IMG/VR virus record: IMGVR_UViG_2671181030_000006
DNA: 43,579 nucleotides
Direction: 5' to 3' (one strand)
Origin: a virus
Lineage: Duplodnaviria; Heunggongvirae; Uroviricota; Caudoviricetes
How positions within the stretch are numbered: the first letter of the stretch is position 1; the number at the start of each line of letters is the position of its first letter. Position numbers and translations under genes: made by a program. The notes under the pieces were generated by a model. It was not told the origin of the DNA. It saw nothing but the letters and a program-made list of their open reading frames with translations, and ran no database searches. Positions 2,835 through 27,134 of the stretch are shown one piece after another.

Positions 2835-5669
2835 TTATGCCTGAGTACGCAGCGCTTCAAGGCGGCGCAGGTCGAAGTCGTTCAGTTCGTCGGTGTAGTC
2901 AGCAGTGATTGGCGCTGGCCATTCACCTGTGTCGAATCCGGTTGCGATATTGCGCATCGCTTTGCGGTACTCGAGCATACCCAGCTCCAGTAGTTCAGCG
3001 GATGCCTCGATGATGGCGATCCAGTGGTAGTTCTCGTCTTTGTTGACGAAAATCCAGAAGAACTGATCCAGCGCTGCGGTTTCGCAGTACATAGCCGCGC
3101 TCAGGTGATAATCACGTTCAATAATTTCCCGGTGTAGCCTGGCGCGCAGGCTTTCCTGCTTAACATTCCACATGCTGATGGTTTTCAGGTCAGCACCGAT
3201 ACGCACGCCGTCTAGGTCGATCTCAAGGTCAGGGCGCACACGAACTTCCAGTCCCGTCTCCTCGTCAAAGCCAAAGTAGCTCACCTCAACGGCGCGGCTC
3301 GGGTGGGTTAGCAGCATGCCTGCGGTCGGGTGTGCCAGCAGGGCCGACTGGATGGCCTGGGCGGTCACCAGCTGCTGGCGCGTCACCAGAATCTTGTCGC
3401 CCGGATTTTCTCGCCAGGCGTCCAGCAGCTCGTCGGCGAATACGGCATCGGGTTTAACCGACTTAATCGCTTGGATCATTTCCGCTTTGCTGCCGGACAC
3501 CTTAAGCGGTGCCGGCTTCTGGGCTTCCTGCTCCACCAGGTCAGGGTTGATGATTGCCAGCTGTTCAAGCAGCGCATCGCGGCTGCCGCTGGTTTTAACC
3601 GGCGCGGGCAGGGTGGCGTTGTACTCTTTGATGCAGGCTTTCATAGCTGCTGCGGTCTGCTTCTGGTCTGGCTCGATGCGCTGGTACTCTGCCGGCAAAG
3701 CCATATAGCTCTGGGCCGTTTCCTCCAGGCTGGCGCCCAGCGGCAGCTGCGCGGGCAGGGTGGCGTTGTGCTCTTCAAGCAGCGCTTTGATATCGTCAGT
3801 GCTCAGCAGTGCCGGCAGGGTGGCGTTGTGCGAATCGATGAACTCGCGCAGGGTGGCGGTGGTAGTAAAAGCATCTTCCGGGATCTCCGGCTCCACGCTG
3901 AACTCTGCCTCAAGGTTTTCAGGCTGCAGCGCCAGGGCGTGAACCAGATTACCCATGTCCAGCACCTTGGAAGGGGCCCGCGGGATAGTTTTGGCGACGT
4001 GGCGCGCGTTGAAGTACATCAGGCTGACCCTGGCATCCTTCACCTGGGTGGAACTGATCCCGTTCGCCGCGTGATAAACGTCATTCGGCACGCCTTCATA
4101 GCGGCCCGGTTCGAAGTACGCCGGGTATTCCGGGACCGGTTGTGAAGGTTGCTCTTCCGGCGCGCTCGCTTTCTCCTCTGATGCTTCGGTGGTCAATTCC
4201 TGCGTAGTGGCGTTCGCCAGCTCCGGCGCCGCGGCGGAGAGCACCTCAGCCGGGTTCAGGGTATCTGTTTGCGGATCAGTTGCATCAGCGCTTTCGCCTG
4301 GTGGTACCGTATCAACAGTTTTGTCTTTCTCTGGCTGAGTCGCTTCCATCTGCACATCGCTGGTGGTCTCCACTACGGTTTCCGGTTTTTCTGCTTCATT
4401 TGAGGGAATATTGATGACCGGGTTAGTATTTCCACTCAACAGGCCATTGATGGAGAACATGCCACCGCCGAGGTTCGCGACCTGCGGCTGAGCTGTTGGT
4501 TCCTCAACCTCTACTTGCGTCTGAACCGCGGACGCGCGCAGGGGCATCAGTTCAGTTGCGGCGTTAAACTCAGCGGTCATGGTCTGGTTAACGAACTCCA
4601 GATGGGCCGCCGGCGTACGATGAATGTTTTCCGGTGCGATCCGTACCAGGTTGAAAATGGCCGCACGGTTTACCGACAGAACGCCAGGCTGGTTACGCAG
4701 AAGGGCGCTCCATGATTTCCAGGGCTCTTCTTTTTTCGCCACGATTTCTTTGGCGCGACGGTGAATGCTGCCCGGGATCTCAAGGTGGTTGAAATCCATC
4801 GGCAGCAGGGCACAGGCGATCTCCAGATCCAGTGTGTCCAGCGTGTGATGCGCACCTTCGCCGCGGTCGGTGACATATCCACCATCGGCATTGGTACCTG
4901 CGTCAGTGCGCTGAACACTACTGATGTGATTACCGGCAGCCCATTCACGCGCCAGGATGCCACGGTCAATGTAATCAGTCGCCGCCCACATTCTGGTGAA
5001 ACGGAGTACCAGCGCGAGTTCGTGACGCTTGTCCTGGCTGAACACTTTGCGAATGGCATCGGTGTAGCGCCACAGGTCTTTGGTGTCGTAACCCTTCACT
5101 TCCGGGCAGTTCTCAGCAGCTAACAGCAAGTTCTGGACGTAACTGTTATCAGTGTCCATCTCCAGCGCGCCGATAGCTTCGTACTCTTCGCGGGTTACGT
5201 GGTGGCGCAGTTCGTCGGCGGTGAACTGGGAAAGCAGTTGCTTACGAAACGGCATCTGCACTACCGGGTAGAGGGTTGAGTCGTCGTCGTGTTCGTCCAG
5301 CGTGATGCCAGCGGTTTCTGGCAGCGTTGACTCAGTAGTTATGTGACTATCAACGGTCTGAGCCGTTTTCTCGTCAGAGTTTTCAGCTGTGACTTTTGGC
5401 AGCCAGGTGCGGTCATCGTTCTGCAGTTCGTAGCGTTCGCACCAGGTGTAATCCACTGCGCCTTCTTCCGGCAGGTCGTCATATACCGGGAAATCGGTGC
5501 GGATTGGTTTGGCATAATCTTTACCGCGGCCAGTTTCTTCAATTCCGGCTTCTTCCAGTGCCACATCGAGTTGGAGATTGGCGCGCGCTACACTTTTCGC
5601 AGTGAACCAAATCACTGCATCTTTCTTGCCAGACTTCTGACTGGCTTTTATCAGATGGAAAAATTCCAT
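2835..5669 (-). CDS. recE: RecE-like exodeoxyribonuclease VIII (C-terminal PD-(D/E)xK-type nuclease), with internal tandem repeats
   Basis: Seen: N-terminal FPVYDDLPEEGAVDYTWCERYEL and TDRGEG motifs closely resemble recalled E. coli RecE. Start chosen at ATG 5669 (MEFFHLIKA...) with a GAGGA Shine-Dalgarno upstream; the track ORF extends to 5774. Confidence 0.8.
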   Translation of the reverse strand: MEFFHLIKASQKSGKKDAVIWFTAKSVARANLQLDVALEEAGIEETGRGKDYAKPIRTDFPVYDDLPEEGAVDYTWCERYELQNDDRTWLPKVTAENSDEKTAQTVDSHITTESTLPETAGITLDEHDDDSTLYPVVQMPFRKQLLSQFTADELRHHVTREEYEAIGALEMDTDNSYVQNLLLAAENCPEVKGYDTKDLWRYTDAIRKVFSQDKRHELALVLRFTRMWAATDYIDRGILAREWAAGNHISSVQRTDAGTNADGGYVTDRGEGAHHTLDTLDLEIACALLPMDFNHLEIPGSIHRRAKEIVAKKEEPWKSWSALLRNQPGVLSVNRAAIFNLVRIAPENIHRTPAAHLEFVNQTMTAEFNAATELMPLRASAVQTQVEVEEPTAQPQVANLGGGMFSINGLLSGNTNPVINIPSNEAEKPETVVETTSDVQMEATQPEKDKTVDTVPPGESADATDPQTDTLNPAEVLSAAAPELANATTQELTTEASEEKASAPEEQPSQPVPEYPAYFEPGRYEGVPNDVYHAANGISSTQVKDARVSLMYFNARHVAKTIPRAPSKVLDMGNLVHALALQPENLEAEFSVEPEIPEDAFTTTATLREFIDSHNATLPALLSTDDIKALLEEHNATLPAQLPLGASLEETAQSYMALPAEYQRIEPDQKQTAAAMKACIKEYNATLPAPVKTSGSRDALLEQLAIINPDLVEQEAQKPAPLKVSGSKAEMIQAIKSVKPDAVFADELLDAWRENPGDKILVTRQQLVTAQAIQSALLAHPTAGMLLTHPSRAVEVSYFGFDEETGLEVRVRPDLEIDLDGVRIGADLKTISMWNVKQESLRARLHREIIERDYHLSAAMYCETAALDQFFWIFVNKDENYHWIAIIEASAELLELGMLEYRKAMRNIATGFDTGEWPAPITADYTDELNDFDLRRLEALRTQA
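3600..3865. repeat. Intragenic tandem repeats (about 4 copies of CAGGGTGGCGTTGT on the + strand) inside recE
   Basis: Seen: copies starting near 3609, 3755, 3815 and a degenerate one near 3849; they encode repeated xHNATLPA peptide units in RecE. Confidence 0.75.
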
Positions 5670-16076: not shown

Positions 16077-16213
16077 GCCGTGACGTTATCGAACGCATCC
16101 GCGACCGCTGGCAAAAGCTTCGCCTCCTGCGTAGCCGCGGCACCGTGCTGGTCGACTACAAAATATTACGCAATTTCGTCCGTATCTATAAGCGCCTGGG
16201 AGAAGCAGCATGA
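16073..16213 (+). CDS. Small basic protein (46 aa), YlcG-like position between rusA and Q
   Basis: Seen: [53 protein letters not shown]-coupled at both ends; not in the ORF track because it is under 60 aa. Confidence 0.5.
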
Positions 16214-16899
16214 CAGCTCAATACTTGGAATTTGTTCGCCAGCAGCTGATAGTGGCCACCGCCGATCTGAGTGGTGCGACGAAAGGGCAACTGGTAGCTT
16301 TTGCAGAGAACGCGCAATTTACCGCTACGGCGCGCAGCCGTGGCCGGAAGAAGGTGTATAGCGAGGTGAAGCAAAAAATGGTTAACCCGGATGGACCGCC
16401 GATGAGCGGCAGCCAGTCCCGCGCTAAGGGTTCCTCAATCGCTCTCGTTCTGCCCGTTGAATACTCGACAGCCAGCTGGCGCCGCGCCCTCCTGTCGCTG
16501 GAAGACCACCAGAAATCCTGGTTGCTGTGGAACTACAGCGACAATATCCGCTTTGAGTATCAGGTAGCGATAACACAGTGGGCATGGGAAGAATTCCGTG
16601 ATCAACTCGGCGCTAAGAAAGTGGCCGGCAAGACGATGGAGCGGCTGAAGAAACTGATATGGCTGGCGGCACAGGACGTGAAAGCAGAGCTGGCGGGTAA
16701 GTATGTATATCAGCACCAGGACCTTGCAGCCCTGTGTGGCGTTAAGCCTGATAACTGGTGCCATAACTACGCTGATTACTGGCGGGCTATGTGCGCCATT
16801 TTTAAGCGGCTTGATAGCGACTCTCTTCTCTGTGCTGTGAGAACACGATCACAACAAAAAGCGACTTTTTCGCAGCAGGGTCTTGCAAAAGTCAATTAA
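16210..16899 (+). CDS. Late-gene antitermination protein Q
   Basis: Seen: 229-aa ORF directly upstream of a short leader, a strong terminator and the lysis cassette. Inference from position and size; sequence recognition is moderate. Confidence 0.75.
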   Translation: MTAQYLEFVRQQLIVATADLSGATKGQLVAFAENAQFTATARSRGRKKVYSEVKQKMVNPDGPPMSGSQSRAKGSSIALVLPVEYSTASWRRALLSLEDHQKSWLLWNYSDNIRFEYQVAITQWAWEEFRDQLGAKKVAGKTMERLKKLIWLAAQDVKAELAGKYVYQHQDLAALCGVKPDNWCHNYADYWRAMCAIFKRLDSDSLLCAVRTRSQQKATFSQQGLAKVN

Positions 16900-16987
16900 A
16901 TACGTCATATTTGAGTCTACTTTGATATGCTGCCTTAACTTTAAGTGGCGGCATGAAGATGATAGTCATATACCAGTTTGTAAAATT

Positions 16988-17016
16988 AGCCTCGGCAATC
17001 CGCCGGGGCTTTTTTA
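16988..17016 (+). terminator. Strong intrinsic terminator (tR'-like) after the Q-proximal leader
   Basis: Seen: 9-bp stem AGCCUCGGC/GCCGGGGCU with a 5-nt loop, followed by UUUUUU. Confidence 0.65.
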
Positions 17017-17325
17017 TGCCTGCGATCCGGTCAGGGCTCTTGGGTAGAGACGTGCTGCACGACACGTCAAAGCCCTTCCGCGCAGAGCCCTGAACCAGAT
17101 TGAAGTTACTCAGCAATAAGAAAACTGCATGTCATCATTTGCTTATATCTTATTGACCAGAAAATTAACATGTTGTTAATCTATTCGTGTGGTGAATCCC
17201 CCTATGCGGAGGGGCGACCAGTCAAACTTTTTTGTCCAGGTTTGTTTGCGCGGAACTAGTCGGCTGGGGCTGTTCCACCGGGAGGCACCCGGCGCCACCT
17301 CCTTGACGGTATTGTTATTTTTCAT

Positions 17326-17352
17326 GCCTGTTCGTCCGAGCAGGCTTTTTTT
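17326..17352 (+). terminator. Second intrinsic terminator in the Q-to-lysis spacer
   Basis: Seen: GCCTGTTCGTCCGAGCAGGC hairpin followed by TTTTTTT. Confidence 0.5.
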
Positions 17353-17400
17353 GCCCGCATTATCTTCATTGAAAACTGGCAACTCAGAGAATCATCCAAA

Positions 17401-17554
17401 TTAAAAAAGCAGCAACGAGAGCGATTACTAATACATTCTTCGCTTTTTCTCTTCTGCTGGCCTTCACAAAAGGATTCACTATCCGGCAGTGGCTACACAC
17501 AAGTGATTCTGGGTTAATTAACTTTCCGCAGTAGGGGCAGGGCTTGATAATCAT
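17401..17554 (-). CDS. Possible small zinc-ribbon protein with C-terminal hydrophobic helix (50 aa), antisense to late transcription
   Basis: Seen: MIIKPCPYCGKLINPESLVCSHCRIVNPFVKASRREKAKNVLVIALVAAFL; no clear Shine-Dalgarno. Confidence 0.3.
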
Positions 17555-17759
17555 TGGTACTAATTAAGTTGTGAGAACGTAGTCTCATTTAACCACATTT
17601 ATCGAGTTGTTTTACTAATGGTCTAGTTATTTCAGACATATTCATCAATTTCAGGCTCACGGGAATCATCCGCTACGTGCTTTGTTGATAAATCCAGCCC
17701 GTGAAGCCTGACCCTTTTCAAACACACACAGCGCCATCCGAAAAATCGGAGGTGAGGCT

Positions 17760-18038
17760 ATGACCAGAATGAGCACCATTTACAGCAGACTTTCATATGG
17801 AACAGGAACCACGCTGACCGGCTGCGGTGTATCAGCGAAGGCATATGCCGAAACAGCTAAAACAGCAAAAGAGGTGTCCTGGATGTTGGCCGACAGAATT
17901 GCAGGGTTAAGCCTGAGCGACTGGGCAATTATTGTCGGTATCGCATGCACTGTTATTACCTGTGCAGTGAACTGGTATTTCCGCTGGAAAGAACGGGAGG
18001 ATCGGCGCAATGGCTATGCCACCAAAGCTGAAGAATAG
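17760..18038 (+). CDS. Holin, pinholin (S21-like) type, with dual-start motif
   Basis: Seen: Shine-Dalgarno GGAGGTGAGG; MTRM dual start; hydrophobic core then [13 protein letters not shown], resembling recalled phage 21 S. Confidence 0.75.
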
Positions 18039-18582
18039 CGTTATTGCAGCGATACCCGCTGGCGCTATTGCTATCGCTGCGGCGTTGATTACTGGCCCAA
18101 CGGGTAATGATGGCCTTGAAGGTGTACGCTATCAGCCTTATCGGGATGTTGTTGGAGTGTGGACTGTATGCTGGGGCCATACTGGTAAAGATATTATCCT
18201 CGGCAAGACCTACACCAAAGCAGAGTGCCAGGCGCTGCTGGATAAAGACCTGAATATTGTCGCCCGACAGATTAACCCATATATCAATGCTCCGATCCCC
18301 GAAACGATGAGAGGGGCGCTGTACTCATTTGCGTATAACGTAGGCGCGGGAAACTTCAAAACCTCCACACTGTTACGAAAAATCAACCAGGGTGATTCGA
18401 AAGGCGCATGCGAACAACTGCGGCGCTGGATCTATGCTGGTGACAAACAGTGGAAGGGTTTAATCACGAGGCGTGAGATTGAGCGTGAAGTTTGCCTGTG
18501 GGCAGAGAAACCTCAGGTTCTGGGGGATGGACTCGGGCCGCTTAACCCTGGCATTCCGGTATCAGTTCCGGGGGTATTCTGA
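18010..18582 (+). CDS. SAR endolysin (T4-lysozyme-like muramidase with N-terminal signal-anchor-release helix)
   Basis: Seen: N-terminal hydrophobic Gly/Ala-rich stretch ([18 protein letters not shown]) followed by a lysozyme-like region ([16 protein letters not shown]). Confidence 0.85.
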
Positions 18583-19118
18583 TGAAACCCAGAAAAATTA
18601 CGATTGTTGCGGTTCTGCTGGTGGCTGTCGTAATCATTATTGCAGTGCTTAGCGTATTACTGGTTCGTAGCCGCTCAGCTCTTGAAACAGAACAGAGTGA
18701 GAATCGGGTATTACGTAATGATAACGCGCTGCAGGCGACGGTGATAACTACACAGGCTTTCAACTTCAATCGGTTTAACCAGATAGCAGAGAACGCCAAC
18801 CGCCTTAACTCGCTGATCGATGCCGGTACTGAGAAAACTGTCATCGAATACCGGGAGATTCTCCGACGTGAAAAGACCTGTGATCTGCCTGTTCCTGCTG
18901 ATGTCGCTGGTGGGCTGCTCAAATACGCGTACCGTTTACGTGCCAGCGCAATGCACCCCGATACCGGGAACACTAACGCAACCGATGATAGTACCGCTGC
19001 CGCCAGCTCAATGACGTATTGCCAGGCCGTCCTCTGGATTGAACCTTTGCTGGCTGTTATTGAGAAGGGCAACAATAACCTGGCGGGTATACGAGAGATT
19101 GAGAAGTTACGAAAATGA
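18582..19118 (+). CDS. Rz-like inner-membrane spanin (i-spanin)
   Basis: Seen: N-terminal transmembrane helix then coiled-coil-like sequence; an embedded out-of-frame lipoprotein ORF is present. Confidence 0.75.
   Translation: MKPRKITIVAVLLVAVVIIIAVLSVLLVRSRSALETEQSENRVLRNDNALQATVITTQAFNFNRFNQIAENANRLNSLIDAGTEKTVIEYREILRREKTCDLPVPADVAGGLLKYAYRLRASAMHPDTGNTNATDDSTAAASSMTYCQAVLWIEPLLAVIEKGNNNLAGIREIEKLRK
18868..19014 (+). CDS. Rz1-like outer-membrane lipoprotein spanin (o-spanin), embedded in Rz in another frame
   Basis: Seen: GTG-start ORF (V)KRPVICLFLLMSLVGCS with lipobox LVGC and Pro-rich tail. Confidence 0.6.
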   Translation: MKRPVICLFLLMSLVGCSNTRTVYVPAQCTPIPGTLTQPMIVPLPPAQ

Positions 19119-19378
19119 ATAATGTCCGTTGACATTGTTAGGGTGATTCTCATTTAACAACCTCAACTGCTACATTACAGTGCTTCATCATGCAATTAGC
19201 TTTTTCACCAATGGCTTAGATCCAGTGAAAGTTACTGACGTTATCTAATGACAAGATGAACGTAGCTTTTGTGTAGTTTTTCAGCGAATAGGATTATCTG
19301 AATTTAGCATTTTTGGCTTGTATAAACTGTGGGTAAGTAGCTATAGTCACGTCATAGATAGTATTTTTGCATCTTTTT

Positions 19379-19402
19379 CAAGCCTCTTTTGAGGCTTTTT
19401 GC
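19379..19402 (+). terminator. Hairpin plus T-tract downstream of the lysis genes
   Basis: Seen: AAGCCTC-TTTT-GAGGCTT followed by TTTG. Confidence 0.4.
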
Positions 19403-19488
19403 ACATTTAAATATGACAACAATGGCACATATAGTATGTCCCCCTTGGCACAGGCACTATATGTAGCGCTATAAAAGGAGCTATCATT

Positions 19489-19689
19489 ATGACCCCAGCT
19501 GAGTTCTACGATGTTTACAATATCAAACCGGCAGAAATGTTGACTGGTGAAACTGTTAACAACTTCGCTTCTCGTGTAATGGCACAGCAAACTAGTACGA
19601 GTGGAAACACAGGTGTTTGGTACTCACAAGGTACCGCTACACAATCGAAGCAAAACCAAACTACAAGTCATCAACTTTACACGTACTGA
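19489..19689 (+). CDS. Hypothetical small Thr/Ser/Gln-rich protein, first gene of an AT-rich moron
   Basis: Seen: 66-aa ORF with strong Shine-Dalgarno AAGGAG. Confidence 0.55.
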   Translation: MTPAEFYDVYNIKPAEMLTGETVNNFASRVMAQQTSTSGNTGVWYSQGTATQSKQNQTTSHQLYTY

Positions 19690-19692
19690 TTT

Positions 19693-20595
19693 ATGCCTAA
19701 TTGGAGCGACGTACTGGGCGAGATAACGGCTCTCGCCCATAAAAGTCCTATGGATGAGGTTCGCCGTAAATACTTATCTCAACTTTCGAATCATACTGGA
19801 AGAAATGTAATCACATATTACTCAGGGTGGTTACAGCATGGTGGTGCAGAAGTACGCCATCTTACTCAGATGACTGATGATGATAAGAACGGGTTGATGA
19901 CAGCCATCAATGGTTTAGATGTATCAAAAGGGTTGGATTTGATACTTCATACTCCAGGTGGTGATATTGCCGCTTTGGAATCAATCGGGCATTACTTAAG
20001 GTCGAAGTTTGGAACTAACATCAGAGCAATTGTTCCTATGATTTCAATGTCCTGCGGAACTATGCTTGCATGTTGTGCCAATGAAATCATCATGGGTAAA
20101 CAGTCCAACATTGGCCCAATTGATCCTCAGTTCAACGGTTTCTCCACCCATGCCATCATTGAAGAATGGAATCGTGCGCAGACGGAAATTTTTCAAAATC
20201 CCGCAGCTGTTCAGATGTGGCAGTTCATTCTTCAAAAGCTAAACCCGACGATCATCGGCGAGTGTGAGAAAGCAATCAAATGGGCAAATGAGATTGTTAA
20301 GCATTGGCTTATGACAGGCATGTTTGATAATGATCCTGAGGCAGAATCAAAAGCAACACATGTTTGTTCAGAGTTAAACAACCATCACACAACCTATACC
20401 CACTCGCGTCATATTCATTTTGATAAGGCGCAGAAAATTGGGTTGAATGTTACCGAACTTGAAAGTGATCAAGTACTTCAAGATTTGGTTTTGACTATAC
20501 ATCACAGCTACATGCATTCTTTTGGTGGAGCACCACTGGCAAAAATCATTGAAAATCATAACGGTAACGCAATGATTTGGAATATCCAGTCTTAA
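19693..20595 (+). CDS. ClpP/S49-fold serine protease-like protein (SDH-proteinase-like), moron gene
   Basis: Seen: LHTPGGDIAALESI and IVPMISMSCGTMLACCANEI resemble the ClpP/SppA motifs (xSPGG and the catalytic-Ser GxSxG region). Family call is from memory of those motifs. Confidence 0.6.
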   Translation: MPNWSDVLGEITALAHKSPMDEVRRKYLSQLSNHTGRNVITYYSGWLQHGGAEVRHLTQMTDDDKNGLMTAINGLDVSKGLDLILHTPGGDIAALESIGHYLRSKFGTNIRAIVPMISMSCGTMLACCANEIIMGKQSNIGPIDPQFNGFSTHAIIEEWNRAQTEIFQNPAAVQMWQFILQKLNPTIIGECEKAIKWANEIVKHWLMTGMFDNDPEAESKATHVCSELNNHHTTYTHSRHIHFDKAQKIGLNVTELESDQVLQDLVLTIHHSYMHSFGGAPLAKIIENHNGNAMIWNIQS

Positions 20596-20614
20596 TCCCC
20601 CCTGTCTGATTCCA

Positions 20615-20638
20615 GCCTCGCCTATGCGGGGCTTTTTT
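20615..20638 (+). terminator. Intrinsic terminator after the protease moron
   Basis: Seen: 7-bp stem GCCUCGC/GCGGGGC (one G-U pair) with CUAU loop, followed by UUUUUU. Confidence 0.6.
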
Positions 20639-20746
20639 ACGCGTATTGCATACTCAAATCAAACTAGAGTCGTTTAGAAGAGAATTCAAAACGGCGGTCG
20701 GACCTGTGTTTTCTTATGGGTCCTCCCGGCGGGGTTGCCTACCACG

Positions 20747-20758
20747 GGGCGGCGCGCT
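20747..20758. other. Candidate cosN cohesive-end site (GGGCGGCGCGCT), with probable cosB sequences downstream
   Basis: Seen: GGGCGGCGCGCTCGCGGG lies about 100 bp upstream of the Nu1-like gene. Established knowledge (recalled): lambda cos overhang is GGGCGGCGACCT followed by CGCGGG. Confidence 0.55.
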
Positions 20759-20863
20759 CGCGGGAAACGGCTAGTTTTTCGGATCCAGGGTCATCATCAT
20801 CATGTGCGCAGGTCTTTGATTTAATTAGAGGCCATTTTCGCAACATGTCGAATCGTTCAAAAA

Positions 20864-21364
20864 GTGTTCACCATCATGGACCAGGAAATTGCCACTTTAA
20901 AACTCAATATCAACCAGCTGGCAGGGATAACCGGCGTACACCGTCAGACGGTTGCCGCGAGACTGAAAAATGTTGAACCTGCTCCAGGCAGCAATAGCAA
21001 GTTAAAGCTCTATCTGGTGACCGACATTCTGACCGAACTGATGATCCCTACCGTTTCGGCCAACATCGACGATATGCCCCCTTCTGACAGGCTGTCCCAC
21101 TGGAAAGCAGAGAACGAGAGGCTGAAGTTCGAACAGGATACGGGGCAGTTAATACCCGCAGATGAAGTGGCGCGAGAATTCTCATTGATGGCGAAAGCCG
21201 TCGTCATGGTACTTGAAACCCTCCCGGATGTGCTCGAGCGCGACTGTGCTTTAACGCCTGCTGCGGTAGTTCGTGTGCAAAGCGTTATCGATGATCTGCG
21301 CGACCAGATGGCGGAGAAGGTGCAGGACGCTGGAAAAGAGGAGGAGCAGCCTGAGGAGGACTGA
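20864..21364 (+). CDS. Terminase small subunit (Nu1-like)
   Basis: Seen: N-terminal HTH-like INQLAGITGVHRQTVAARLKN; acidic C-terminus; followed by the large subunit with overlapping start. ATG 20876 is an alternative start. Confidence 0.8.
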   Translation: MFTIMDQEIATLKLNINQLAGITGVHRQTVAARLKNVEPAPGSNSKLKLYLVTDILTELMIPTVSANIDDMPPSDRLSHWKAENERLKFEQDTGQLIPADEVAREFSLMAKAVVMVLETLPDVLERDCALTPAAVVRVQSVIDDLRDQMAEKVQDAGKEEEQPEED

Positions 21365-23466
21365 TGGCAAAGCGGGCATCCGCCAGGGACATCCGCCGCG
21401 ATGTTTCCGGTATTTTACGAGCCCCGCGTCGTATGCCGGTGGCCGATGCGGTCAGTACTTATATGCGCGTGCCAATGGGGGCGGGAAACTCAGTTCCGTG
21501 GGATCCGGATCTGGCACCCTATGTGATTGAGCCGATGAACTGTCTGGCATCGCGTGAATACGATGCGGTTGTGTTTGTGGGCCCAGCGCGAACGGGTAAA
21601 ACCATCGGGCTGATTGACGGCTGGATCGTTTATAACATTGTCTGCGATCCGGCAGATATGCTTGTAATTCAGGTATCTGAGGAAAAAGCGCGCGAGCATT
21701 CCAAAAAACGCCTGGACCGTACTTTTCGCTGTAGCCCTGAAGTTAAAACCCGGCTAAGCCCAAGACGTAACGATAACAACGTCTACGACCGTACATTCCG
21801 CGCCGGTAACTATCTGAAGCTGGGCTGGCCATCCGTCAATATCATGTCGTCCTCGGACTATAAAAGTGTGGCGCTGACGGATTATGACCGCTTTCCGGAA
21901 GATATCGACGGGGAGGGGGATGCTTTTTCACTGGCATCGAAACGAACCACGACATTCATGTCCTCCGGGATGACGCTGGTTGAGAGCTCGCCCGGGAGGG
22001 ATATCAGAGACACAAAATGGCGGCGCTCCACGCCCCATGAAGCCCCTCCGACCACCGGAATTTTATCGCTCTATAACCGTGGTGACCGCCGTCGTCTTTA
22101 CTGGCCATGCCCGCATTGCGGCGAATATTTCCAGCCGGAAATGGACAATATGACCGGATACCGCGACAGCAGCGATCCTGTGCTTGCCAGCGAAGCGGCG
22201 TTTCTTCAGTGCCCTGCCTGTAAAGGCAGGATCACACCGGACATGAAGCGTGCGCTTAACATGAAATGTGTCTGGCTCCGGGACGGGCAAACCATCGACA
22301 GGAAAGGCCTGGTTAGCGGTGATGGCCGTCGTTCCCGTATTGCCTCCTTCTGGATGGAAGGTCCGGCAGCTGCTTACCAGACCTGGGCGCAGCTTATTTA
22401 TAAGTTTCTGACCGCCGAGCAGGAATATGAATCCACGCGCAGCGAAGAAACCCTGAAGACGGTGATCAACACCGATTTCGGCAGGCCCTATTTGCCGCGA
22501 GCCAGCATGGAGCAGCGTAAAAGTGAATTGCTCGAGCAGCGTGCCGAAGACGTCCCAAAACGTTCGGTACCGAACGGCGTGCAGTTTCTCACTGCGACCG
22601 TGGACGTGCAGGCCGGGCGCAACCGGCGCTTTGTTGTGCAGATTACGGGTTATGGAAGTATGGGTGAGCGCTGGATAGTTGACCGTTACAACATCCGGCA
22701 TTCGCTGCGCTGCGACGGCAACGGTGAAAGCATTCAGGTGGATCCGGCGAGCTATCCGGAGGACTGGGATCTTTTACTCACTGACGTCTTTGATAAAACG
22801 TGGCCGCTCGCAGCTGACCCATCAAAGGGCATGCGGCTGATGTCGATGGCCGTGGACTCAGGGGGCGAAGATGGCGTGACGGATAATGCCTACAAGTTCT
22901 GGCGCAGATGTCGCCGTGAGGGGCTGGGTAAGCGTATCTATCTCTTCAAAGGGGACAGCGTCAGGCGCAGCAAACTTATCCAGCGAACGTTTCCCGACAA
23001 CACGGGCAGATCAACGCGCCGCGCACAGGCGACTGGTGATGTGCCTCTTTATCTTCTCCAGACCGATGCCCTTAAAGACCGGGTGAATAATGCGCTGTGG
23101 CGTGATTCACCCGGCCCTGGCTATGTGCATTTCCCCGCCTGGCTGGGCAGCTGGTTCTATGACGAACTGACGTATGAGGAACGCTCGAATGAAGGGAAAT
23201 GGAGTAAGCCCGGCCGGGGCGCAAACGAAGCATTTGACCTGCTCGTTTATGCCGACGCGCTCGCCATCCTTAGTGGTTACGAAAAAATCAAATGGCCGTC
23301 AGCTCCTGAGTGGGCACGGCGGGAAACGTGGATCGAGGACACGCAGACGGAAGCTGGCGAAATGCCATCCCCGCCGCCTGCGCCGAAATCTAAACCAAAA
23401 CCAAAACGTGAGAAGCCCGTAACCGAGCAGGCTAATCCGTGGTCTTCGTCAGGAGGTTGGGTGTGA
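21364..23466 (+). CDS. Terminase large subunit (lambda gpA family)
   Basis: Seen: 700-aa ORF with Walker-A-like VGPARTGKT and a Cys-rich CPHCGEY...CPACKG element. Inference from size and position. Confidence 0.88.
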   Translation: MAKRASARDIRRDVSGILRAPRRMPVADAVSTYMRVPMGAGNSVPWDPDLAPYVIEPMNCLASREYDAVVFVGPARTGKTIGLIDGWIVYNIVCDPADMLVIQVSEEKAREHSKKRLDRTFRCSPEVKTRLSPRRNDNNVYDRTFRAGNYLKLGWPSVNIMSSSDYKSVALTDYDRFPEDIDGEGDAFSLASKRTTTFMSSGMTLVESSPGRDIRDTKWRRSTPHEAPPTTGILSLYNRGDRRRLYWPCPHCGEYFQPEMDNMTGYRDSSDPVLASEAAFLQCPACKGRITPDMKRALNMKCVWLRDGQTIDRKGLVSGDGRRSRIASFWMEGPAAAYQTWAQLIYKFLTAEQEYESTRSEETLKTVINTDFGRPYLPRASMEQRKSELLEQRAEDVPKRSVPNGVQFLTATVDVQAGRNRRFVVQITGYGSMGERWIVDRYNIRHSLRCDGNGESIQVDPASYPEDWDLLLTDVFDKTWPLAADPSKGMRLMSMAVDSGGEDGVTDNAYKFWRRCRREGLGKRIYLFKGDSVRRSKLIQRTFPDNTGRSTRRAQATGDVPLYLLQTDALKDRVNNALWRDSPGPGYVHFPAWLGSWFYDELTYEERSNEGKWSKPGRGANEAFDLLVYADALAILSGYEKIKWPSAPEWARRETWIEDTQTEAGEMPSPPPAPKSKPKPKREKPVTEQANPWSSSGGWV

Positions 23467-25187: not shown

Positions 25188-27134
25188 ATGCAGGCCAGCA
25201 ATAACAGTGAGGCCGACATTTTTATTTATGACGAAATCGGGTACTGGGGCGTAACGGCGAAACAGTTCGTCAATGATCTCCGGGCACTTGGGGACGTCAC
25301 CCACATCAACCTTTATATCAACTCGCCCGGTGGTGATGTCTTCGACGGAATTGCTATTTATAACGCGCTGAAGCACCACGGCGCGGCGATTACCGTACAT
25401 ATCGACGGTCTGGCGGCCTCCATGGCCTCGGTGATTGCGATGGTAGGCAATCCGGTCATCATGCCTGAAAACACGATGATGATGATCCATAAGCCCTGGG
25501 GGTTTGCTGGTGGTGACGCGAGCGATATGCGCGACTATGCGGATCTTCTCGACAAGGTTGAATCCGTTCTTATCCCGGCTTATGCACAGAAAACCGGAAA
25601 ATCCACCGAAGAAATTGCGGCAATGCTGGAGGACGAAACCTGGATGAACGGCAGCGAGTGCCTTGAACTGGGTTTTGCCGACCAGGTGACACCATCCCTT
25701 CAGGCTATGGCCTGTATTCATTCAAAACGTATTGAGGAATTTGAAAAAATGCCAAAAAGCATTCGCAACATGATCACCCCGCCGCGCAACACTACCCAGC
25801 GTGACCCGGTTATTACCCAGCCTCAGGCACCGCAGGCAAAAACAGACCCGGCACCGGATGAAAATGCGATCCGCGCGCAGGTGTTGGCTGAGCAGAAAAC
25901 CCGTGTTAACGCTATCGGCGATCTCTTTGCCATGTTCGGTAATAAGCACATGGAACTGCAGAATCAGTGTGTGGCCGACCCTGATTGCTCCGTCGATAAG
26001 GCGAAAGATTTGCTGCTGGCAGAACTCGGTAAAACGGCCACGCCGTCCAATAAAACCACTCAGCCGCATATTCATGCGGGCAACGGTAACTTCGTCGCGG
26101 ATGGTATTCGCCAGGCACTGATGGCGCGTGCCGGGTTCGAAGGTCAGGAGCGGGATAACGTTTATAACGGTATGACGCTGCGCGAGTATGCGCGTATGGC
26201 CCTGACAGAAAAAGGTATCGGCGTGGCCAGCTACAACCCGATGCAGATGGTTGGCCTGGCGCTGACCCACAGCACCTCTGACTTTGGCAACATTCTGCTT
26301 GATGTTGCGAACAAAGCGCTGATTCAGGGCTGGGACGAGGCGCAGGAAACCTTCGAGCAGTGGACCAAAAAAGGCCAGCTGTCGGACTTCAAAACGGCGC
26401 ATCGTGTCGGTATGGGTGGGTTCCCTTCTCTGCGACAGGTTCGCGAAGGGGCTGAGTACAAGTACATCACTACCAGTGACAAAGGCGAAACCATCGCGCT
26501 TGCCACGTATGGTGAAATCTTCTCAGTAACTCGCCAGGCGATCATCAACGACGATCTGAACCAGCTTACCGACGTACCGATGAAGATGGGGCGCGCGGCG
26601 AAAGCAACGATTGGCGATCTGGTTTACGCCATTCTGACCAAAAACCCGAAACTCTCAGACGGAAAGGCGCTGTTCCATGCCGATCACAAGAACCTGAGCT
26701 CGGGTGCAATTTCTGTGGCCAGCCTGGACGAATCGCGCAAGCTGATGCGTCTGCAGAAGGAGGGGGAGCGAACCCTGAATATCCGTCCGGCCTACATGCT
26801 GGTGCCCGTCGCCCTGGAAACTCTGGCAAATCAGACCATCAAGTCGGCCAGTGTTAAAGGTGCAGACATCAATGCCGGGATCGTTAACCCTATCCAGAAC
26901 TTTGCAGAAGTCATTGCCGAACCACGTCTGGATGAAGCTGATGCGAAAGCCTGGTATCTGGCTGCCGCGAAGGGCACCGACACCATTGAGGTCGCTTATC
27001 TCAACGGCGTCGACACGCCATACATCGATCAGCAGGAAGGCTTCACCACTGATGGTATCGCCACGAAAGTGCGTATTGATGCTGGCGTGGCGCCGCTGGA
27101 CTATCGCGGCATGACCAAATCCTCTGGTCAGTAA
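25188..27134 (+). CDS. ClpP-like prohead protease fused to major capsid protein
   Basis: Seen: N-terminal ClpP-type region (YINSPGGDVFDGIAIYNAL...ASMASVIA...MIHKPWG) and a long C-terminal capsid-like domain. Alternative start GTG 25113, preceded by AAGGAGG, lies inside the portal 3' end. Confidence 0.8.
   Translation: MQASNNSEADIFIYDEIGYWGVTAKQFVNDLRALGDVTHINLYINSPGGDVFDGIAIYNALKHHGAAITVHIDGLAASMASVIAMVGNPVIMPENTMMMIHKPWGFAGGDASDMRDYADLLDKVESVLIPAYAQKTGKSTEEIAAMLEDETWMNGSECLELGFADQVTPSLQAMACIHSKRIEEFEKMPKSIRNMITPPRNTTQRDPVITQPQAPQAKTDPAPDENAIRAQVLAEQKTRVNAIGDLFAMFGNKHMELQNQCVADPDCSVDKAKDLLLAELGKTATPSNKTTQPHIHAGNGNFVADGIRQALMARAGFEGQERDNVYNGMTLREYARMALTEKGIGVASYNPMQMVGLALTHSTSDFGNILLDVANKALIQGWDEAQETFEQWTKKGQLSDFKTAHRVGMGGFPSLRQVREGAEYKYITTSDKGETIALATYGEIFSVTRQAIINDDLNQLTDVPMKMGRAAKATIGDLVYAILTKNPKLSDGKALFHADHKNLSSGAISVASLDESRKLMRLQKEGERTLNIRPAYMLVPVALETLANQTIKSASVKGADINAGIVNPIQNFAEVIAEPRLDEADAKAWYLAAAKGTDTIEVAYLNGVDTPYIDQQEGFTTDGIATKVRIDAGVAPLDYRGMTKSSGQ

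Follow-up and report, generated by a model that had tools for sequence, protein, structure and literature searches.

A mobile two-gene cassette encoding an SDH-type ClpP-fold serine protease and a small partner in a lambdoid prophage of Escherichia coli: a candidate defence moron

The cassette, its borders and its distribution

The DNA analysed here (the window) is a stretch of 43,579 nucleotides from a virus of the Caudoviricetes (IMG/VR record IMGVR_UViG_2671181030_000006). Between the lysis genes (Rz) and the packaging genes (terminase) of this prophage lies an island (19119-20640), which consists of a 66-aa ORF, a 300-aa ORF and an intrinsic terminator. An earlier note, made from the letters alone, had described this island as AT-rich, and the base composition bears this out: the GC content is 0.36-0.44 over positions 19000-20650 versus 0.49-0.59 on both flanks. 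The features of the region are as follows.

16210-16899, antiterminator Q (Pfam)
18582-19118, 178-aa ORF, read as an Rz-type spanin
18820-19014, 64-aa lipobox ORF, Rz1-like, inside the 178-aa ORF
19270-20640, + strand, the whole mobile cassette, about 1.37 kb; borders approximate (left 19269-19306, right 20639-20683)
19318-19347, + strand, putative sigma-70-like promoter box: -35 TTGTAT (19318-19323), 18-nt spacer, -10 TATAGT (19342-19347)
19380-19401, + strand, terminator-like leader hairpin T1: AAGCCTC-TTTT-GAGGCTT, then a T-run
19427-19464, + strand, inverted repeat SL2: arms ACATATAGT (19427-19435) and ACTATATGT (19456-19464), just upstream of the ribosome-binding site
19489-19689, + strand, small partner gene ('HP'), 66 aa; PHROG 25714, E 4e-44
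19693-20595, + strand, SDH-type ClpP-fold serine protease, 300 aa; Pfam PF01972
20614-20639, + strand, intrinsic terminator T2, which closes the cassette: 8-bp stem (20614-20633) with 6 G-C pairs, then TTTTTT
25188-27134, ClpP-major capsid fusion, the separate head protease (Pfam)

The genes recognised by Pfam around the cassette are, in order, Q, holin and lysozyme, and then a DUF1441 protein, a gpA-type large terminase and a lambda-type portal; the DUF1441 protein occupies the position of the small terminase. The 178-aa ORF has no Pfam match, and it was read as an Rz-type spanin because of its position and the embedded Rz1-like lipobox ORF. The head maturation protease is encoded separately, as the earlier note had stated, and it matches PF00574 at 7e-40. 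Two other elements were observed in the Q-holin interval. One (17157-17356, + strand) matches the Rfam sRNA family STnc100 over its full length (85 bits versus a gathering score of 47, E 7e-18) and is placed where the leader of the late promoter would be. A 56-aa ORF (17384-17554, - strand) gave zinc-ribbon and DUF2116-like matches just under the Pfam cut-offs, and it may be another small accessory gene.

To locate the borders of the cassette, the window was compared by blastn with prophage loci of IMG/VR. Where a phage has different flanking sequences, the similarity begins at 19269, 19294 or 19306, and stops at 20639, 20677 or 20683. The terminator T2, which the earlier note had already called strong, coincides with the right border in three prophage backgrounds. 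No direct repeats, as a sign of transposition, were found flanking the cassette, and the Rfam search of positions 16500-21500 gave no match inside it. By these sequence comparisons, the cassette is a self-contained, horizontally mobile two-gene unit with sharp borders in an E. coli lambdoid prophage. It is discrete, occurs at varied positions in different prophages, has an atypical composition, and carries its own terminator together with a putative promoter box. Judged by these properties it is a phage moron, as had been proposed.

The identical cassette is present in 42 of the 5,426 complete E. coli genomes, and some variant of it in 80 of them (about 1.5%), including Nissle 1917. Among the IMG/VR loci the cassette was also found after Rz in other lambdoid backgrounds. 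The same or a related cassette directly follows Q in prophages of Enterobacter and E. coli, including that of E. coli Nissle 1917; it lies between Mor and the lysis genes in a Mu-like prophage of Aeromonas, near a TIR-domain gene; it is located at prophage ends in Pseudomonas and Proteus, where it faces integrase or tail-fibre genes; and it is found beside a resolvase in Methylomonas. The megablast search of 50,697 phage records revealed no match. In the protein search, only 7 of the 50,697 sequenced phages encode a homologue (37-46% identity), namely a Shewanella Mu-like phage (MZ568827), five Porphyromonas gingivalis phages (BK068108-BK068112), and the Gordonia phage BeeGee (MW601219). All seven look temperate, judged from their names or hosts.

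Two of the prophage loci showed additional features. In the Mu-like prophage of Aeromonas hydrophila (L093), the TIR_2-domain gene (3784-4578, - strand) is about 1.2 kb upstream of the HP-SDH cassette. Both belong to one accessory region, bordered by the early genes and Mor, and may form a small defence cluster. In the IMG/VR prophage L098 (6932-8335), the cassette lies behind holin, lysozyme and Rz. Beyond it come another lysozyme-like ORF and one that resembles a spanin; around the cassette, the lysis genes seem to be duplicated.

The protease and its small partner

Residues 22-255 of the 300-aa protein match the Pfam family PF01972 (SDH_protease) with 81.2 bits against a gathering cut-off of 31.3 (E 8e-23), and the gene is named 'SDH family Clp fold serine proteinase' in RefSeq. 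The earlier note had predicted a ClpP/S49-like protease and suggested a profile search for the protease fold. The HTPGGD and SMSCGTMLA motifs and the ClpP fold agree with the prediction; whereas the family, as assigned by profile scores, is SDH (PF01972) and not S49 or S14. The NCBIfam equivalog NF047768 was matched only below its cut-off (95.9 versus 250), so the protein belongs to a divergent subfamily. It also matches PHROG 11747, whose function is unannotated, at 2e-138. Weak hits, all under their cut-offs, were obtained for ClpP-type head proteases, NfeD and SppA.

Within the ClpP/crotonase fold, Ser120 is aligned to the ClpP nucleophile. The residues invariant in 19 protease homologues include Ser120, Asp144, Lys136, Lys182, and several His (86, 237, 240, 270, 271 and 275); the loop 236-238 has low confidence in the structural model. 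The candidate catalytic residues are Ser120 and Asp144 with one of the His, or a Ser120-Lys182 dyad. In total, six His and two Cys are invariant (residues 86, 127, 191, 237, 240, 270, 271 and 275), and a serine protease of this kind is expected to need at most one catalytic His. One possibility is that the excess His and Cys belong to a metal site in the C-terminal half of the protease.

The protease gene is under strong constraint, with a dN/dS of 0.01-0.02 against copies whose synonymous sites are saturated (dS 1.2-1.4). Full-length relatives form 649 clusters at E <= 1e-30. The gene lacks its own ribosome-binding site and begins 3 nt past the stop codon of the 66-aa gene. In addition, no long hydrophobic stretch was seen in either protein when the sequences were read by eye. 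The protease is best explained as a cytoplasmic protein translationally coupled behind the 66-aa gene.

The 66-aa ORF is present as the earlier note had described it, with strong initiation: its ATG is 8 nt downstream of AAGGAG (19475-19480). Its dN/dS is 0.05-0.09, at saturated dS (1.2-1.4), and the substitution pattern indicates a real gene under purifying selection. This gene is missing from the RefSeq annotation of NZ_CP025916.1 (L001 12019-12594), although the protease downstream of it is annotated there; other variants (L111, L112 and L113) do list the small gene, as a hypothetical protein. No Pfam domain was matched in the 66-aa protein, and it has no recognisable DNA-binding domain. 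Modelled alone (pLDDT 62), the protein is predicted to form helices over residues 3-9 and 23-37, and its second half to be disordered.

A profile of the 66-aa protein was searched against 5.8 billion proteins, and the matches are all 62-80 aa in length, without Pfam domains or fusions. The family pattern opens with a helix motif at the N-terminus (aromatic-x-x-F/L-x-I/L), which is followed by a second helix and by the motif V/I-x-Y-S/T-x-x-S/T; this last motif falls in the disordered half of the protein. The C-terminus L-Y-S/T-Y is invariant in the aligned gammaproteobacterial partners (Enterobacterales, Aeromonas), but this tail is not conserved outside Gammaproteobacteria.

The pairing of the two genes was analysed in 80 genomes, which represent nearly all bacterial phyla and one archaeon. 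The protease of the window shares 49-56% sequence identity with those of 79 loci, and 84% with the remaining one (Mangrovibacter). In almost all of the 80 loci a small ORF on the same strand abuts or overlaps the protease start, and its end ranges from 29 nt inside to 18 nt before that start (-29 to +18). In six loci, from Firmicutes, Spirochaetes and Planctomycetes, the homologous small ORF is just downstream of the protease instead; counting both gene orders, a small ORF adjoins the protease in 80 of 80 genomes. Iterative profile searches were seeded with the 66-aa protein of the window and extended via Proteus, Klebsiella, Aeromonas and Methylomonas intermediates. From the 7,261 ORFs in the 80 loci, these searches recruited partner ORFs only. 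The partner was recognised by profile in 67 loci, and in the other 13 a small ORF of comparable character adjoins the protease. A second large partner class shares only the N-terminal motif (a 19-column match, hhalign probability 55%).

The two genes differ in evolutionary rate: the protease retains about 50% identity across phyla, whereas the partners have diverged beyond recognition. On these alignments, the small partner that the earlier note had assigned to the protease is a fast-evolving family conserved beside it across phyla. In the window, only TGA and a single TTT codon stand between the small ORF and the protease, which share one reading frame (19687-19695). Read-through of the stop codon, which would fuse both ORFs, was considered and rejected, since homologues differ in frame and in spacing (-29 to +18 nt).

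No third conserved gene was found among the neighbours of the 80 sampled loci. Outside prophages, the immediate neighbours of the cassette are mostly unrelated genes, many of them housekeeping genes; integrases account for 4 of 141 neighbours, and a few others are restriction-modification genes, reverse transcriptases or HEPN proteins. The enrichment of defence islands around the 80 loci is weak. Guilt by association is therefore weak, because the neighbours outside prophages are mostly ordinary genes.

The conserved leader

Thirteen gammaproteobacterial cassette leaders, from Escherichia, Enterobacter, Mangrovibacter, Proteus, Klebsiella and Aeromonas, were aligned. The sequence GCTATAGT and the box TTGT(A/C)(T/A) are kept in most of the 13 leaders, with TTGTCA in three copies; the -35 element of the window (TTGTAT) matches 3 of the 6 consensus positions. 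The conservation suggests that the box at 19318-19347 is active as a promoter. The presence of promoter-like sequences within the cassette, as claimed in the earlier note, is thus supported by this box, but not by the elements which the note had named. The TTGACA near 19130 (19129-19134) was rejected as the promoter of the cassette: it has no acceptable -10, the promoter scan did not pick it up, and it falls outside the conserved unit. What the note had called TATA-rich (19420-19470) turned out to be the two arms of the conserved inverted repeat SL2 rather than a conserved promoter. Another promoter-like site from the scan (19406-19435) was rejected because its -10 is not conserved in the other copies.

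The hairpin T1 was recovered by RNAalifold, with compensatory changes in 4 of 7 pairs and 93% of the cells paired. T1 fits an RNA of the + strand, because G.U wobbles outnumber A.C mismatches (6 versus 1). The arms of SL2 also covary: one pair is AU in 6 leaders, GC in 3 and CG in 3, and another is CG in 9, UA in 2 and UG in 1. The mismatch counts of SL2 are nearly equal (6 G.U and 7 A.C). SL2 might be either an RNA stem or a DNA operator (a protein-binding palindrome), and these counts favour neither. Taken together, T1 and SL2 contain seven pairs with compensatory changes, and 88% of the cells are paired in both helices versus 25-57% when the partners were slid by 1-3 columns. Folded as a single sequence, the leader has a z-score of -1.57, which by itself is not significant. 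No Rfam family matched the leader.

Possible role and comparison with known systems

On balance, the cassette is probably a prophage defence moron, in which the small protein would restrain the protease or sense for it. The defence role rests on the prophage positions, on a DefenseFinder system of exactly this composition, and on the work of Fillol-Salom et al. (2022, Cell 185:3248), in which FS_HP_SDH_sah on phage-inducible chromosomal islands is reported to protect against phages. The pair is likely this DefenseFinder system, because the composition matches: FS_HP_SDH_sah consists of a 'hypothetical protein' and a PF01972 (SDH_sah) protease, and the window contains an SDH_sah domain protein with an adjacent candidate HP gene in the same operon. 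No model in PADLOC-DB v2 matched either protein. To our knowledge, no mechanism has been described for the HP + SDH pair.

The gene order, the translational coupling and the evolutionary rates are the grounds for proposing that the small partner acts as an inhibitor or bait. In the lysogen, the cassette's own promoter (19318-19347) would drive expression at a low level, which hairpin T1 in the leader would dampen; during lytic growth, late transcription from the Q-controlled promoter would read through the cassette. The small protein would always be made first and in excess, and it would hold the protease in check, or serve as a sensor or bait. Its V/I-x-Y-S/T-x-x-S/T motif, in the disordered half, may occupy the substrate groove of the protease. 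Infection by another phage would remove or displace the small protein, and the freed protease would then cut a highly conserved cellular or phage target, so that phage production would be blocked.

A more far-reaching proposal, which we regard as possible but doubtful, is that HP-SDH is a prokaryote-wide, protease-based and toxin-antitoxin-like abortive-infection module, with a bait in the disordered half, a universal target, and expression set by the leader. The Y-S/T-x-x-S/T strand would be a pseudosubstrate or bait that silences the ClpP-fold protease. A cellular target that is universally conserved would explain why the proteases of E. coli, Firmicutes, Planctomycetes and a methanogen keep about 50% identity. 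The conserved leader, with its attenuator-like terminator and covarying stem or operator, would control expression.

The same pair could also be a selfish addiction module resembling toxin-antitoxin systems, in which a toxic protease is neutralised by a labile small protein, and which persists by post-segregational killing and spreads horizontally without a specific anti-phage role. The solitary two-gene unit is scattered among unrelated neighbours in many phyla, the small gene is first and translationally coupled, the upstream palindrome could be an autoregulatory operator, and an identity that stays flat at about 50% from phylum to phylum suggests that horizontal transfer is frequent. However, the small protein lacks a recognisable DNA-binding domain or Pfam match, and a system of this composition is catalogued as a defence system; we consider the selfish module rather unlikely. 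Many toxin-antitoxin modules also act in defence, and the two readings can coexist. It is unlikely that the cassette instead serves the lytic growth of its own phage as part of the late operon, for example by degrading a host defence or regulatory protein or by timing lysis. Every lambdoid or Mu-like copy examined is oriented with late transcription and lies either behind Q or Mor and ahead of the lysis genes, or in the interval that separates lysis from packaging genes; moreover, Q-modified polymerase would read through both terminators. Against such a role, a conserved promoter box and terminators belong to the cassette itself, the copies at prophage ends face integrase or tail-fibre genes, and many genomes carry the cassette with no phage genes nearby. 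The homologues in sequenced phages are also restricted to the 7 temperate-looking ones among 50,697.

The small protein might be a precursor which the protease cuts to release a peptide signal or toxin. Its C-terminal half is predicted to be disordered, the Y-S/T-x-x-S/T motif is conserved, the L-Y-S/T-Y terminus is invariant in the aligned gammaproteobacterial copies, and the adjacency of the two genes is strict even with swapped gene order. Reading of the two sequences showed no long hydrophobic stretch in either, the neighbourhood contains no conserved transporter or receptor, and the C-terminal tail is not conserved outside Gammaproteobacteria; this alternative is given a very low probability. 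That the cassette is an inactive remnant, composed of decaying ORFs or chance frames in AT-rich filler DNA, is favoured by nothing except its AT-rich composition. The selection and conservation data (dN/dS of 0.01-0.09 across both genes, 649 clusters of full-length relatives at E <= 1e-30, and invariant catalytic-type residues) already refute it, and its probability is close to nil.

Proteases are emerging more and more often as effectors of bacterial immunity. A defence moron at this position would be no surprise to a specialist, and the result for the window itself is modest. The protease gene was already annotated in RefSeq, and the system type was catalogued in DefenseFinder. Apparently undescribed are the universal presence of the small partner in the sample, the swapped gene order, the contrast in evolutionary rate, and the conserved leader. 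Testable handles of the system include Ser120, the Y-S-x-x-T motif, the L-Y-T-Y tail, the hairpin T1 and the inverted repeat.

The protease of the window differs from the known families of the same fold. It shares about 15% sequence identity with ClpP (MEROPS S14), and PF00574 (Clp protease) is absent from its matches at E <= 1. ClpP has the catalytic order Ser, His, Asp, with Ser97 and His122, as against Ser, Asp, His in the SDH family; in the window protease the invariant Asp144 is 24 residues after the Ser, which in the presumed alignment is the spacing of the ClpP His. Its C-terminal half, helical and about 125 residues long, is an addition, and its neighbourhood lacks a partner ATPase. 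The score against SppA (S49, TIGR00706) is 16 bits with a family cut-off of 155, and that against the 1510-N / NfeD protease is 25 with a cut-off of 40. Unlike these two, the window protease revealed no hydrophobic segment when its sequence was read, and its neighbours did not include a stomatin gene.

By analogy, the cassette resembles Lit of the prophage e14, as a prophage-borne protease that could kill the infected cell via a conserved target. Lit is a metalloprotease which cuts EF-Tu when triggered by the T4 Gol peptide. The two differ in that Lit has an unrelated fold and catalytic type, is a single gene, and has a known trigger and target. The 'tail assembly inhibition' (Tai) systems were rejected as the identity of the cassette, as the paper (PMC11364771) mentions no protease or SDH. 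Full-text literature searches on the family name and PF01972 gave nothing useful.

The closest likeness is to FS_HP_SDH_sah, in which a mobile element of Enterobacteria likewise carries a small hypothetical protein next to a protease of PF01972 (formerly 'SDH_sah'). FS_HP_SDH_sah has also been detected in viral contigs from dental wastewater, and the homologues in Porphyromonas phages fit this detection. The copy in the window differs in its carrier: it resides on a lambdoid prophage, between Rz and the terminase, and not on a chromosomal island.
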